Assembly (NCBI GenBank): GCA_951406725.2
Contig: OX597814.1
Coordinates: 177,196,001-177,260,000, forward strand
Length of the DNA stretch: 64,000 bases
Origin: Octopus vulgaris
Taxonomy: Eukaryota
Direction: 5' to 3'
Positions within the stretch are counted from its first letter, which is position 1. The number at the start of each line of letters is the position of its first letter. Positions 13,582 through 43,568 of the stretch are shown piece by piece. A model generated the notes under the pieces. That model was not told the DNA's origin and made no database searches. It was given only the letters and a program-made list of their open reading frames with translations. The translations under genes were made by a program, and so were the position numbers.

Positions 13582-13970
13582 ACGGTGGAGTAGAGGCAGG
13601 CAAAAGTGAAAGTAGAGATATATAGGAAAGGATAGAGTAGAGGCATGCGAAAGTGAAAGTAGAGATATATAGGAAAGGTGGAGTAGAGGCAGGCGAAAGT
13701 GAAAGTAGAGATATATAGGAAAGGTGGAGTAGAGGCAGGCGAAAGTGAAAGTTGAGATATATAGGAAAGGTGGAGTAGAGGCAGGCGAAAGTGAAAGTAG
13801 AGATATATAGGAAAGGTGAAGTAGAGGCAGGCGAAAGGGAAAGTAGAGATATATAGGAAAGGTGGAATAGAGGCAGGCGAAAGTGAAAGTAGAGATATAT
13901 AGGAAAGGTGGAGTAGAGGCAGGCGAAAGGGAAAGTAGATATATATATATAGGAAAGGTGGAGTAGAGGT
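13582..13970. repeat. 46-bp purine-rich minisatellite, ~8 copies
   Basis: Unit GAAAGGTGGAGTAGAGGCAGGCGAAAGTGAAAGTAGAGATATATAG; period 46 (equivalent positions 13672, 13718, 13764). Confidence 0.95.
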
Positions 13971-16942: not shown

Positions 16943-19322
16943 CGTTTCTTTATTGGTCACAAGGGCCGGACACAAAACAAATAGGATCAATATAAAACTG
17001 GGGACACGTGGGGTTTAACATAAAAATCGAGTAAACAATATAATAACAATGACAGTTACCTATACAACTAAACAATAAAATTCTCCAAAAGTGCGAAGTT
17101 CTTCACAGGGACAACCGAGGAACCCCACACATTTTGGTTATTCCGCCAGATGCACCTCAGCAGGCGGCTCTCCCCTCAACTCCTCCGGTTTACAAACGAA
17201 AGTTCAGAGTAGGCCCGTACACACAAGCCATCCTCACAAAACGCACCCACCTTTCAACAAATTTACTCAGGTTGGGGAGCAGAAGTTCCCTCTCTACTCT
17301 GTCTTTCCTTTAAAAGTGGAACTTGAAAAAGTCGTGGAGGGCTTGGCCGAAGAGGAAAGTACCTCTCTTCAGTCCTTTCAATCTCGTCCACCATACTACC
17401 TCCTTCGCCATAGCCACCAGTATGAGGAAAACTACCTTTTTTTCCCGGCGGGGCTATCTTCACAATGGACTCGGTTGATAACCGGATCCGTCCTAGATGT
17501 GATAACAGGTGTCCGACAAAGCTCCACAAGTCAGTAATGCACGGGCACTGGGCGGGTGCGTGCAGGGCGGTTTTGTCGCTCTACGTACACCTCGGACAGG
17601 TCCGTCTGACAGTATTTCTATGTCTGTAGAGCTTGTTCGAACCGACAGAGCTCCTCGGTGGGACTGCCAAGCCAGGGATTTCTTGAAGTTATCCATAAGC
17701 TCCGGCCCGAAAGTCCTCCGGAAAAGACCAGTTAATTGATCCATTTCTGATCCCTCCCGCCGCTCAAAGTTTCCCCGAGGACGTCGTCACTCTTGCCCGC
17801 CACTAATCCCTTATAGAACTCCATGGTGGAACTTACACCGACCGCGTTGCTCGACTAGCAGAAAGCTGTCAGCGCTTGACGAAACTCCAGATGTCAAGCA
17901 CCCTTTCTTGGTCTACGCTTGATCCAGGACTGTAGCTCTGTCAATGAGACGAGCTGCAGAAAATCCTGCTTGACAAAACGGTGACCAGACTTGTTCAGCG
18001 TTAGTAAAATGCTGGAGATACTGCAACCTTAGCGCATGTCTGCGCATCACTAGCCAAGGCATGCCCAATCCTGCACTCAGCGGCTGTTGATAGTAGTGGA
18101 CCGTCTGACGAGTGGAACACATCCATTCCACAGAAAGTGGAATAGCAAGTGCTTCAGCTTGGTCAGCCATGAAGTAGGGCAAGGGACGACGGTCAGGTGG
18201 TAGTAGATAACGGAAGCGATGTACTCATTCGCCATCTCCACCCGACCTTTTAGGGACAGCTTCCACTCTGCACATTTCTGGGTGAGATTGGCTACCCTGC
18301 TCATCATGGGTGAGATTGGCTACCCTGCTCGTCATGGGTGAGATTGGCTACCCTGCTCGTCCTGGTGAGATTGGCTACCCTGCTCGTCCAGGTGAGATTG
18401 GCTACCCTGCTCGTCCTGGTGAGATTGGCTACCCTCCCTCCAGTTCTTGTCCACCTGGAGGTTCGGACCAAACCAGACCGCGAGCAATTTGACTCTTCAT
18501 TCCGTCCAGCGCCCTACCGCGCTGTCGGTTGGTATGGACCTGCCTCTCCAGGTGCCGAGCTACAGGCTCACTAACGTATCCTGACTAATTTTTGCTCCTG
18601 TTCCCGCTCCGTACTCTCTTAAAGTAGTGCTGATCACCTCGATTTCCGAGCTGTCCGATACTATTACGGTGATGTCGTCCACATAAACTAACACGAACCT
18701 TCAGCATCCTAGGTTACGTGTGATAACCCTCGAAATATCCAACTTCCTCAGTAATAGCTCGAGAGCCAGCACGTACAGAAAGGGCGAGAGTAGGCATCCT
18801 TGACTGACCGAGCGAGCGAGCGATGCTAAACGTTTCCGAAATATGGTTGTTTACTTTAACCATCGAACAGATACCGCTATACATCTCGCCTCTGAAAACG
18901 GGACCGAAGCCGGCCGCTGTGAGGACAGCCTCCAAATTTGATGATCGACCTGGTCAAAAGATTTTGATTGATCCAAATTGATCAGAGCCCTACCCATGCA
19001 AGGTTTCTTCCCAACCCTCTCTATGATGTAGCGAGTGAGGTGGAAGTTGTGGATAGATCTGTTCCGGATAGCGCATGTCTGCGCGTTACCGACCAGCTTA
19101 CCGACAAGTGCCAACCTCTTGGCTGACACCTTGGTCAAAATCTTATAATCTGCATTTAGCAGAGTTATAGGCCTAAAACGATCTAATTGGTCCCCATTGT
19201 TCGGGTTCTTTCTCAGAAGCATCACAAAACTGGGCATTCTCTCGCTCTGCTGCCAGTTGTGGTAGACATCCGCCTAGAGATCACCGAAAACGTCTGGCAT
19301 ATGAAGTTAAGGCTCGAAGGGC
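16943..19322 (-). mobile_element. Tx1/L1-clade LINE, 5'-truncated ORF2 (RT plus C-terminus) pseudogene
   Basis: FRPITLLNADYKILTK, LINLDQSKSFDQVDH, VRQGC-type segment, YVDDITV, LSLKGRVEMAN, LFHFLW, GLGMP, FVERW. 3' UTR ends AATAAAGAAACG-(ATT)n. Many frameshifts. Confidence 0.9.
18281..18437. repeat. 27-28 bp tandem repeat, 6 copies, inside the Tx1 RT
   Basis: GGTGAGATTGGCTACCCTGCTCGTCCT units start at 18281, 18309, 18337, 18364, 18391, 18418. Confidence 0.95.
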
Positions 19323-40030: not shown

Positions 40031-40521
40031 GTTTAATAATTATTATCCGTTTATTCGACACAAGGGCAAATACAAACCATTTTGTATATACACATATACT
40101 TTTATATGTACACATTATTATATAATGGGAGGATGTTAGAAGGACCGGTAACATCTATCTCCATTATCGATGGTACCTTTAGGTCAAATGCCTTAGGATA
40201 TTTTCCATATTCCGCCACGGAGAAATCTTTCGAAAGAAAAAATATTCACTACATCCTCATCGATATCAAAATATCTCCAAGAATATCATCATTCACATGA
40301 TCATTCACTGACCGTTTATTGAATATAACCTTAACCTTTTCAGCCACTGTGTTGATAGACTGGTAAAGGGCTGTGAACATCGGAAATACGGAAATACTCT
40401 AGATGCAAAACGTTAATCCTTGGTCTACTTTTGATTAAAACTACAGCTCCGTTAAAGAGACGAGTTGGAGTGCCAGACACGTTTGACAAAAGATGAACGC
40501 AACAGCTCACTTTCCAGGAAT

Positions 40522-40574
40522 TCTTTTACTCTTTTAGCTGTTTCAATCATTTGACTGTGGCCATGATGGAGCAC

Positions 40575-40609
<35 letters not shown>

Positions 40610-40879
40610 CAGCAGCAGCAGCAGAAGTAGCTTCAGGAGCAACAGCAACAGCAGCAGCAGTAGTAGCAGCAGCTTCAGAAGCAGAAGATGAAGAAAATCG
40701 ACCCCAGGACTTATTCTTTGTAAGCCTAGTACTTATTCTATCGGTCTCTTTTGCCGAACCGCTAAGTTACGGAGACGTAAACACACCAGCATCAGTTGTC
40801 AAATGATGTTGGGGGGGGACAAATACAGACACACAAACATACACACACATACACACACACGCACACACATACACACACA

Positions 40880-40943
<64 letters not shown>

Positions 40944-41092
40944 CATATATACGACGGGCTTCTTTCAGTTTCCGCCTACCAAATCTACTCACAAGGCTTT
41001 GGTCGACCCGAGGCTATAGTAGAAGACACTTGTCCAAGGTGCCACACAGTGGGACTGAACCCGGAACCATGTGGTTCGTTAGCAAGCTACTT
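40522..41092 (-). mobile_element. SINE family A split by the ORF1-only element; its 5' end is at 43335-43371
   Basis: Continuous SINE sequence up to GTTAGCAAGCTACTT, resuming after the TSD with ACCACACAGCCACTCATGCGCC. Confidence 0.9.
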
Positions 41093-41265
41093 TATTTCAA
41101 AACATTTGCCATAAAGGCAGTACACAGATTAAGTTAGCTTTGCGGGCTGGACGAGGACATTAATGAGGTGAATGATAATGAAAGAAAGATGATAAGGATG
41201 GGAGAAGACAGAAAGCGCCCGCCGACTTTTGCTTCTCTAAAACATTGTTCTTTTTAAAAAAGATT

Positions 41266-41390
41266 AACACAAAACGAGGTATTAAACCTCTTACAATTTT
41301 TCCAATTTTGGGCTTAGCAGTCCATTATTAATACAAAACGAGGTATTAATCCTCTTACAATTTTTCAATTTTTGGACTTAAGTCCATTAC
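41266..41390. repeat. two ~63-bp tandem units in the element 3' UTR
   Basis: acaaaacgaggtattaa.cctcttacaattttt.caattttgg.ctta..gtccatta occurs twice. Confidence 0.85.
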
Positions 41391-42632
41391 TAATAATACA
41401 TATCGTCCTCGAAATAGCTTGTGCCCGCGCCCTCCACCATCAACCACGCCTCCCTCAGAACGTAGTCAAGTTCCGAGTTCGCGTCGCCCGGGACCAAGTT
41501 ATAGTCTTCATTGAGCTCCTTTAGCCCTAGCGTCACGTCGAACGCCACGGCCTCCACAGGTACCTGCGGAGGCCATTCGGGGTCCTGTGTGAAGGCTAAA
41601 GGTGCTCCCTTGTAGTGCTCTTCCATCACTTTTTCAATTTCTCCTCCTCTATAGAAGAGGACCAATACATTCAGTTCTTTCGTTGGCGGCACAGTTTCCG
41701 CCAACGGTATTCCTTCTCTTGTCGGTGGCACAACCCCAACCGACGTAGTTCCGCGACATTCCGGTGCCACACTGACAGCCGGCAACGTCCCGTTTTTCTT
41801 CCTCTTTTTCTTTTTTTTCCCTTTTCAACTGAGGGAGGGTGCGTCTCCTCCGTGGCTGGAAGATTCGCCCTCCTCTCCTCATCCCTATTATCCTTTGGTG
41901 AGCACCCATTGTTGCTCACCTTCCTCTTTCGGCCTCTGCTTGAGGAGTCCTCTGCTTTCTCGGCCGTTATCGTTCCCTCTTCTAGAGGGGTTTTACTTAA
42001 CTGTTCCGGGATCCTATTTTGTTCCCGAGGACAGTTCTTCTTTATGTGGCCGGACTCCAAGCACCGATGACACTTAGGGGGGCGACCCTCAAGCATCACC
42101 GGGTACCTGCACCCGGCCATTTTCAAAAAATCTGGAAAAACCAGATTGGCTGATTGGGTCCACAGGGTCAAAACTGCTTTCGAGCCAACCCAAGCAGCCG
42201 CAGGAAGAACTTTTACATTGAGGAGCTTAGTTTCGCTGTCACCCAGACCCCGGCGGATAGTCTCCTCTATCCACTCGGGTTCTATGTCGGGTGGCAGTCC
42301 GCAGATCCAAGCTTTCATCAATTTCTTTTTTTGTAAGTGGGCAGGAATAAGATTTCCTTACCCTCCAAGGGTTCGCTAGCAAATTTGCAAGCCTCTTCAG
42401 GGGTGTCAAACAGCAACCACACCGTTCCATATTTGACACCCCTGGAAATGAATTTAATTGTTGGCAAATACTCCTCCAACTCCTCCTCAATTGCCGTCTT
42501 TTCGAATAGGGCGATGGTGTCAAGTGCCTTGGAGTAGGTTCTCAACACCACCGTCCTATCTTCACGGTCCTTCAACCACTTTTTGGGTGGTATGATTTCC
42601 CACTCCAAAACTTTGTTATTTTTCATTGCCAT
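41390..42632 (-). CDS. Tx1/L1-type ORF1p (RRM-like region plus CCHC zinc knuckle), two single-base frameshifts in A-runs
   Basis: ORFs 42318-42632, 41671-42321 and 41390-41785 join into ~414 aa if one A is added in each of two poly-A runs; contains GLPPDI and GRPPKCHRCLESGHIKKNCP. Confidence 0.75.
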
Positions 42633-43568
42633 GTTTTTTAAAAAATATATTCAAATTAGACTCAAAAGCAGGAAGAAAAAAGTTCAAAAGTCTAAATAAA
42701 TTTGATAGATTTTTGAAAAAACAAAAAGGAGAAAGCACAACAGAAGGGAAGAAATTAACGGAAAGTCGCAATAAAGAAAAAACAAAAGGGGGGGGTAAAT
42801 GAAGTTCAAAAGAAAGTTAATAAACAGAAAAAACACAGCAAAAATATTCTGGCCTTGCGGTACTCCCGGCCTGGGTTGAACCTGGAACACCGCAACTGCA
42901 ACACAACCTCCACAAAAAGGTCCGAAAGGTAATCCAATAGTGGCTTATTTTTATACTTTTCTTGCGAAGTACTCTGACAAGGGAATAAATTCAACAAATC
43001 CAAACACAGCACTGGCTACCGCCAACGGTGATTTTAACAGTAACTGTATTGAATTCTGAGGATACGCCCCTCCACTGTTTTTTCTTTTTTTTTTTTTTTT
43101 TTTCAATGAACACAAAAACGGCAGCCGCCTAGCGCAGGCGAAATTGTCTCAGAGTTGGACACAACCTACTGAAATAATAATTGGCACGCAATAAATTATG
43201 CCCAACTCACAATAAACAAAATCACTTACCTCGACAACTTTCCGTTTTTGGTCTTTTTTCTTTAGTTGGAAGGAGCTTGTTACTCACGTCCACTCTAGCT
43301 CAACAGGAAGCAACCGACTAACTGCGCATGTGTGGTTAGCAAGCTACTTACCACACAGCCACTCATGCGCCCGATGAAGATGTTGCAGCATCTGTACAAT
43401 GATGAGCATCAAAAGCTATTCAACATCTTGGTGACATTGGAAACTATTTAGTATTCTGAAAGTTTTTACTGTCAGATCTTAAACTGTTGTTGCAACCACC
43501 CTCTGTTAGGTAAGCTTTTCTATCATTCATACTATACGCTTCGTATAATATAGTGACAGCCTACACTC

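Follow-up and report, generated by a model that had tools for sequence, protein, structure and literature searches.

At positions 41078–43349 of the window (the whole stretch of 64,000 nt of Octopus vulgaris DNA that was analysed), a retroelement with a single open reading frame interrupts the head of a SINE. This raises the question of how an element without enzymes of its own moves, and whether its landing site is fixed. In our reading, to which we assign a probability of roughly 0.7, it belongs to a young ORF1-only family whose fixed insertion point is a single base in a tRNA-like SINE head, and it likely borrows the endonuclease and reverse transcriptase (RT) of an L1/Tx1-group LINE using the same site, by the cycle proposed below.

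Structure of the insert and its host SINE

The direct repeat GTTAGCAAGCTACTT, at 41078–41092 and 43335–43349, encloses 2,242 nt, and the insert, like all features given below, is read on the minus strand. A 5′ UTR of ~700 nt (42633–43334) is followed by ORF1 (41390–42632), a single ORF in three pieces, and by a 3′ UTR of ~300 nt (41093–41389) with a 64-nt tandem duplication (41263–41395) and an end that lacks a poly(A) tail. The layout given in the original prediction, a 2.24-kb insertion with 5′ UTR, ORF1 and 3′ UTR, was thus confirmed. The predicted lack of endonuclease and RT also agrees with a Pfam scan of the three ORF pieces, which returned no match to either.

Upstream of the insertion lies the 5′ part of the host SINE head (43350–43371) with an A-box-like motif at 43351–43361; this head sequence is also found upstream of most family copies. 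The remainder of the SINE (40520–41092) comprises the 3′ target copy (41078–41092), a B-box-like motif (41052–41061) and a microsatellite-rich body and tail. Removing the insert in silico yielded a SINE head that resembles an uninterrupted copy at ~53000 in the window. The A- and B-box-like motifs stand at tRNA spacing, and the head aligned to the genome's tRNAs of eight anticodon types with z-scores of 5–6 compared with shuffles, in keeping with the tRNA-like SINE head that had been proposed as host; neither ARAGORN nor Rfam reported a tRNA match for it. An intact copy of the host-type SINE measures ~430 nt. The SINE is short, dispersed and very abundant, with 78,641 uninterrupted heads of one variant (T-type; exact 30-mer count, whole genome) and 4,516 exact heads of another (A-type). 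Named octopus SINEs are OK, OR1 and OR2. The name OR2 occurs in the accessible part of PMC4758252. A LINE-type tail is not present on the host SINE in the window. Elsewhere in the window there are two minisatellites, one of 8 copies of a 46-nt unit (13584–13969) and one of 6 copies of a 27-nt unit (18281–18435).

A young family at a single base of the SINE

We searched the genome with the element and scored 40 of 3,297 candidates. Among these 40, 28 were near-full-length matches at 92–100% identity, and 11 more shared all but the first 363 nt, starting at nt 364 behind another 5′ UTR. The element had been taken for a member of a young family, and these matches show that it is not a one-off; we call the family A. 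Its exact 3′ end (31-mer) occurs 213 times in the genome, and 200 of these ends run straight into the same base of the SINE target. All of 30 ends fetched regardless of their flank lay at the SINE site. The flanks are hence non-random, as expected from the suggested targeting of SINE heads. Both ends were recovered for 49 distinct 2-kb copies; copies of 2.06–2.27 kb carry ORF1 only. Over their last 600 nt eleven of the youngest copies are 99.5% alike, compared with 93.6% for their host SINE bodies (55 pairs), so the insertions occurred independently, into pre-existing SINEs. Occupancy of the exact T-type heads is ~0.8% (624 filled, 78,641 empty).

The 5′ UTR of family A begins in one of two unrelated ways, with the switch at ~nt 363: the segment at 42972–43334 in the window is replaced by unrelated sequence in a sister subfamily (L029, L030, L038–L044, L180). 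The switch point adjoins a splice-acceptor-like sequence; despite such splice-like signals in the 5′ UTR, none of 50 copies was spliced. Three loci (L095, L153, L186) are chimeras of a family-B-like ORF1 start and a family-A 3′ end, and in the neighbourhood of two family-A copies there are further, more remote relatives of ORF1 (L019:4393–5001, L022:4447–4938). The first bases of many families (43300–43334 in the window; starts of L032, L087, L131, L251 and L262) resemble promoter motifs, presumably of NRF1, ETS and CRE type, which suggests that the element starts are candidate internal Pol II promoters.

ORF1 and its product

The original prediction described an ORF1 of ~414 aa, open apart from two breaks in A-runs. 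A naturally intact version exists elsewhere in the genome: the copy L085 has an unbroken ORF1 of 414 codons. Aligned with it, the window's ORF1 shows 4 substitutions and, in A-runs at ~42332 and ~41818, two gaps of one base each, which may be assembly errors in this copy. The second of these runs varies between 25 and 28 among copies and is 27 long in intact L085. In short-read contigs from four sequencing runs, which mix all copies, the A-run at 42325 is one base longer. Unbroken family-A ORF1s were found at only 2 distinct loci among L001–L187. Contigs from four sequencing runs that we guessed to be RNA cover the element and not its unique flank, a picture that low-coverage DNA would also give; the same holds for the single contig of 2,083 nt that spans the element in one of these four runs.

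Pfam detected a single weak zf-CCHC match in ORF1 (PF00098, E 0.003–0.008, below the curated cut-off), corresponding to a zinc knuckle at aa 187–202 (42028–42075). Transposase_22 had no match in ORF1 of the element or of the ORF2-bearing partner described below. An AlphaFold model of ORF1 reached pLDDT values of 75–93 over aa 11–160, and the top Foldseek matches of this model were all tandem-RRM proteins (E 1e-4 to 6e-4), placing predicted tandem RRM domains at aa ~14–180 (42093–42593). From the model, ORF1 is predicted to comprise two RRMs and the CCHC knuckle, then a linker modelled with low confidence, then a C-terminal domain.

The latter, an alpha/beta domain of ~85 aa (41423–41677) of the main ORF1-only lineage, is conserved in an alignment of 35 divergent copies and was modelled with pLDDT 81 and pTM 0.67. 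It is indeed the segment that could not be placed from the sequence at first sight: no match was obtained in Pfam, in the PDB or by fold comparison (Foldseek best E 0.19, VIA best Z 4.9), and it was not detected in the ORF1 of the partner (hhalign 0.1%). Longer proteins that contain this domain were searched for and not found, which is weak evidence. With a homologue as query, the ESM Atlas returned CCHC/RRM clusters and, weakly, ZCCHC3 RNA-binding domains (0.89–0.90). A ZCCHC3-type domain was not confirmed by Pfam in 20 homologues; our literature search found no paper linking ZCCHC3, Tx1 and ORF1. The nearest named proteins to the insert are from Octopus and Argonauta.

Among ten ORF1-only copies from different families, dN/dS was 0.08–0.30 in 43 of 45 pairs, the other two being saturated. 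Judged by these ratios, ORF1 of the ORF1-only elements is under purifying selection.

An ORF2-bearing LINE at the same site

It had been supposed that the element borrows its enzymes from an ORF2-bearing LINE with a shared 3′ end. Such a partner was identified: it occupies the same target base and has a terminus of ~37 nt in common with family A. Full-length copies (L078, L079) are ~5.45 kb long and contain ORF1 and ORF2, with a zf-CCHC match in ORF1, here above the cut-off, and Exo_endo_phos (PF03372), RVT_1 (PF00078) and zf-RVT (PF13966) domains. The closest solved structure to its ORF2 is human L1 ORF2p (E 4e-64), with R2 at E 2e-19. We counted 103 exact 3′ ends of the partner, and all 30 that were checked lie at the same SINE base as family A; older ORF2-bearing relatives are also found there. 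Copy identity is 98.7% for the partner and 98.0% for family A, indicating similar youth. In a DNA comparison of the two, the last 37 nt are ~78% identical, and no other part matches more strongly.

Because it uses the same base, is of similar age and shares the last 37 nt, the partner is the likely enzyme donor, and its ORF2p was likely supplied in trans to family A. Kinship does not single out this partner, since the two ORF1s are only 29% identical, over aa 14–207 only, where the region modelled as tandem RRMs has a homologous counterpart in the partner (E 6e-24); this low identity also marks the element as an old, independent lineage. None of 10 full-length partner copies has an unbroken ORF2, the longest open frame being 882 aa.

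The partner combines an APE endonuclease and an L1-group RT with a type I ORF1 and sequence-specific insertion into a repeat; type I ORF1s (RRM and zf-CCHC) are defined in the part of PMC5203782 that we used, and the targeting habit of Tx1 elements is described in that of PMC4494074. Domain layout and targeting habit fit the Tx1 clade, to which it may belong rather than to another L1-group lineage. The best database matches of its RT are unnamed proteins at 27–28% identity, and one plant protein carrying a TX1 name matches at 24%. At one locus (L134:5720–6032; G000:C1:202250178) the 5′ part of a SINE is joined to a partner-type 3′ end and precedes another SINE body.

Further lineages at the same base

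We classified 60 consecutive junctions from the T-type junction matches, skipping two known family-A loci. This sample contained 33 ORF1-only elements, 8 full elements with ORF1 and ORF2, 5 with a 5′-truncated ORF2 and 14 without protein match. In a phylogenetic tree of ORF1, the main ORF1-only lineage forms one long-stemmed clade (support 100/100), and the ORF1s of the examined ORF2-bearing elements fall outside it. A second ORF1-only group stands apart from this lineage and nearer to the partner. These separate lineages, together with the dN/dS values, indicate that the ORF1-only design arose at least twice and that a working ORF1 was kept for long.

Members of the second lineage (L160, L205, L211, L217, L249, L251, L254, L286, L296) are ~1.4–1.9 kb long where both ends were seen, and their ORF1 is 35–41% identical to that of the partner and 24–33% to that of family A. 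There is also an ORF-less family of ~490 nt (L202, L206, L276, L277, L279, L288, L290), consisting of a remnant of the ORF1 C-terminus and the 3′ UTR. It has a single fixed 5′ start and is located in A-type heads though its 3′ UTR motif is of the T-type (TAC). This family is a third tier of passenger.

The fixed site could in principle go back to one ancient insertion, with SINE head, insert and body moving as a unit or by duplication, given that the same SINE flanks every copy and is itself a retroposon. The host bodies, however, differ from one another far more than the inserts do and represent different variants, 5′-truncated copies of many lengths end in the same 3′ joint, and many unrelated families as well as tandem stacks occur at the same base, which makes such joint movement very improbable. 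That the element is a full-length LINE which lost ORF2 after its insertion, for which internally deleted partner copies such as L083 provide a precedent, is hardly credible in view of dozens of dispersed copies with an identical ORF1-to-3′ UTR structure and of the single, well-supported ORF1-only clade on its long stem.

Leader, target-site duplication and 3′ joint

The perfect 15-bp target-site duplication (TSD) described at the outset is exact as a direct repeat, but only ~9–11 nt of it are duplicated target; the rest is a leader carried by the element. In copies whose target does not match the family leader, agreement between the 5′ and 3′ repeat copies stops at 9–12 nt. In the window, the TSD core thus corresponds to 43341–43349, and the target-like leader (43335–43340) stretches the apparent TSD to 15 bp. 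Among 16 informative copies, the family version of the leader was kept in 14; one had the target-type and one another sequence. Because the leader is carried by the element, the landing site is rebuilt with each insertion, resulting in head-to-tail stacks of different families. A single SINE can contain as many as four elements, drawn from different families (L032 at G000:C1:29271000–29279300, L083, L084, L085). In one stack, family A lies directly before an internally deleted partner.

The 3′ end has no poly(A), and an AATAAA signal arises only across the joint with the target (624 and 93 such junctions); in the window it lies at 41091–41096 and is made of four element bases and two target bases. 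A small terminal hairpin (41107–41119) is common to the families and the ORF2-bearing partner.

SINE variants and an antisense motif in the 3′ UTR

The SINE heads occur in the two variants introduced above, and filled sites exist for both (624 T-type, 93 A-type). At 40–120 nt before their 3′ end the elements have a motif that is antisense to the target's top strand (41131–41143 in the window), and its central base tracks the head variant across families. We sampled 166 junctions (86 T-type, 80 of the 93 A-type), of which 107 could be scored and 59 could not; at least one locus, L284, is probably mis-scored. The motif read TAC at 70 T-type junctions and TTC at 1, and TTC at 28 A-type junctions and TAC at 8. 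On a tree built with the central base masked, 7 independent pairs on starred branches gave 5.7 going the same way and 0 the opposite way (median p 0.031, range 0.016–0.125); a first, smaller sample with 4 pairs was not significant (p 0.125).

Duplex energies point in the same direction. Elements at T-type junctions favoured the T target in 63 cases versus 3, and those at the 80 A-type junctions favoured the A target in 38 versus 17. An energy of −9 kcal/mol was reached by 75% of the real 3′ UTRs versus 17% of shuffles. A stem of modest stability between motif and target was predicted in most natural ends tried; across nine natural ends folded with target bases its z-score ranged from −0.3 to −2.8, with one at +0.3 and the window at −0.72. 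Family A was not seen in A-type heads among its 213 ends, where ~11 would be expected from the exact-match counts of empty heads. The 30 ends of a TTC family that were fetched regardless of flank comprised 20 A-type, 1 T-type and 2 other sites and 7 unscored ones. Copies of this TTC family are 93% identical and their host SINEs 81%, against 98% and 92% for family A; the TTC family is the older of the two, so age and variant are confounded. Nor is the motif a strict guide, since the ~490-nt family with TAC sits in A-type heads and duplex energy favours the T-type target at 17 of the 80 A-type junctions. Rewriting of the motif at each insertion was ruled out, as TAC elements keep TAC in A-type heads. 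The pairing between motif and target is probably real, and a short tail motif that changes with the landing site suggests that RNA pairing helps insertion.

Two other explanations accept these elements and differ in what selects the site. In one, the SINE variant is selected by the motif, which would serve as an internal guide by base-pairing with the top strand of the target DNA once this is displaced; priming by the bottom strand frees the top strand, to which the motif is complementary, and the covariation of motif and variant, including the distribution of the TTC ends, would fit. The presence of the ~490-nt TAC family in A-type heads, with none seen among the T-type junctions sampled, speaks against such a guide, and T-type heads may postdate the movement of the TTC families. 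We therefore regard it as quite improbable. It is also unlikely, if somewhat less so, that with the same family and partner the endonuclease alone sets site and variant, motif and read-through sequence having no role in choosing or priming and the motif having tracked the dominant SINE variant as an RNA structure. Target choice by Tx1 elements is attributed mainly to the endonuclease in the portion of PMC4494074 used here, variant and motif sort by age as well because of the older TTC family, and elements with a TAC motif are present in A-type heads. Yet parallel one-base switches in ORF2-bearing and ORF1-only lineages would still need selection for pairing, and base-exact 3′ joints without a tail suit annealing better than priming from poly(A).

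Proposed insertion cycle

Family structure, site specificity, partner, shared 3′ end, ORF1 selection, leader, stacks and motif covariation were observed; the cycle that we propose to connect them, including trans-mobilisation and read-through priming, was derived from genome sequence alone. Pol II transcription would start in the 5′ leader, and the RNA would continue past the AATAAA created at the junction, extend for a short distance into the SINE and be coated by the element's own ORF1p. The partner's ORF2p would nick the bottom strand in the interval that separates the A and B boxes, and the freed DNA end could anneal to the read-through sequence, so that copying starts at the last base of the element and leaves no tail. 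A requirement for downstream target sequence is known for R1Bm, as cited in the part of PMC7265360 we consulted. The top strand would then be cut ~9–11 nt downstream, where the leader may anneal and rebuild the site, allowing head-to-tail stacking of later elements. A stem around the terminal hairpin and the poly(A) signal would be closed by pairing between the antisense motif and the read-through bases; this stem is probably the structure recognised by ORF2p.

More tentatively, target choice may be inherited through the RNA: SINE bases at both ends would lead to insertion into the matching variant, the motif would have been re-tuned independently in several lineages as the SINE master changed, and a long-lived ORF1-only radiation with a new domain would outnumber its LINE and disable SINE promoters on landing. 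We consider this extended scenario possible, though doubtful as a whole.

Comparison with known systems

HAL1 (half-L1) elements derive from mammalian L1, with an ORF1p of the Transposase_22 type, and are mobilised in trans by the ORF2p of their parent LINE; they have a poly(A) tail and are dispersed by insertion into AT-rich sequence. In mammals they are non-autonomous, encode ORF1p only and arose more than once, according to the consulted part of PMC5753468. Family A likewise codes only for ORF1 and amplifies in that form, here with at least two separate ORF1-only lineages. Its ORF1 is of type I (RRM and CCHC) and not of the Transposase_22 type, its host is a cephalopod, it has strict site specificity and an extra C-terminal domain, and it lacks a poly(A) tail. 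The proposed HAL1-like nature therefore holds for the ORF1-only design, but in ORF1 type, missing tail and fixed site the element is not a HAL1.

Tx1-type LINEs that target transposons include Tx1 in Tx1D, Tx1-Mar in Mariner-N4_AMi and Tx1-9_AMi in Harbinger, with SINEU passengers (PMC4494074, in part). As in the octopus, an APE-type LINE enters a mobile element, non-autonomous passengers use the same target and insertions occur in tandem. Unlike in these cases, the octopus target is a SINE head, hit at one base in 94–100% of copies, and the passengers are protein-coding, 2 kb long and more numerous than the LINE, with a 3′ UTR motif that tracks the target variant. Small-RNA genes serve as targets for Keno (U2), Mutsu (5S), Dewa (tRNA-Leu spacer) and Dada (tRNA, U1, U6), as described in sections of PMC4494074 and PMC3706591. 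A multicopy sequence of small-RNA type as a safe landing site is common to these and to the octopus elements; in the octopus, however, it is a selfish, putatively tRNA-derived repeat with ~80,000 exact heads instead of a host gene, and its A and B boxes are separated by the insertion.

HeT-A with TART/TAHRE (PMC5537684, in part) is similar in that an ORF1/Gag-only element under selection is commoner than its RT partner, is site-restricted and forms head-to-tail arrays. The octopus element differs in using a dispersed internal target with a TSD rather than chromosome ends, and it has no known host function. In R1Bm and SART1Bm, annealing of RNA 3′ sequence to the nicked target sets the RT start (PMC7265360, in part), as we infer here from genomes; the octopus element has in addition an antisense motif inside the 3′ UTR. 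In its accessible portion, a 2026 octopus repeat annotation (PMC13282606) names 13 L1-Tx1 families with recent activity and gives neither their targets nor their structure. In the literature searched, whose coverage excluded Repbase and some key papers, we found no SINE-head-targeting or ORF1-only Tx1-type family from cephalopods. ORF1-only passengers and transposon-targeting Tx1-type LINEs are both known strategies; their combination was not found in that literature.

The two SINE variants with matching elements offer a direct test of RNA–DNA pairing versus endonuclease alone in the target choice of LINEs, a question that bears on site-specific gene insertion tools. Since ORF1 is selected though it is only 29% identical to that of the partner, these elements also allow the question of why a passenger retains an ORF1p of its own to be tested in nature. 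SINEs usually exploit LINEs, and this relation is reversed here: for a LINE and its passengers, a SINE serves as a renewable landing site of a single base.
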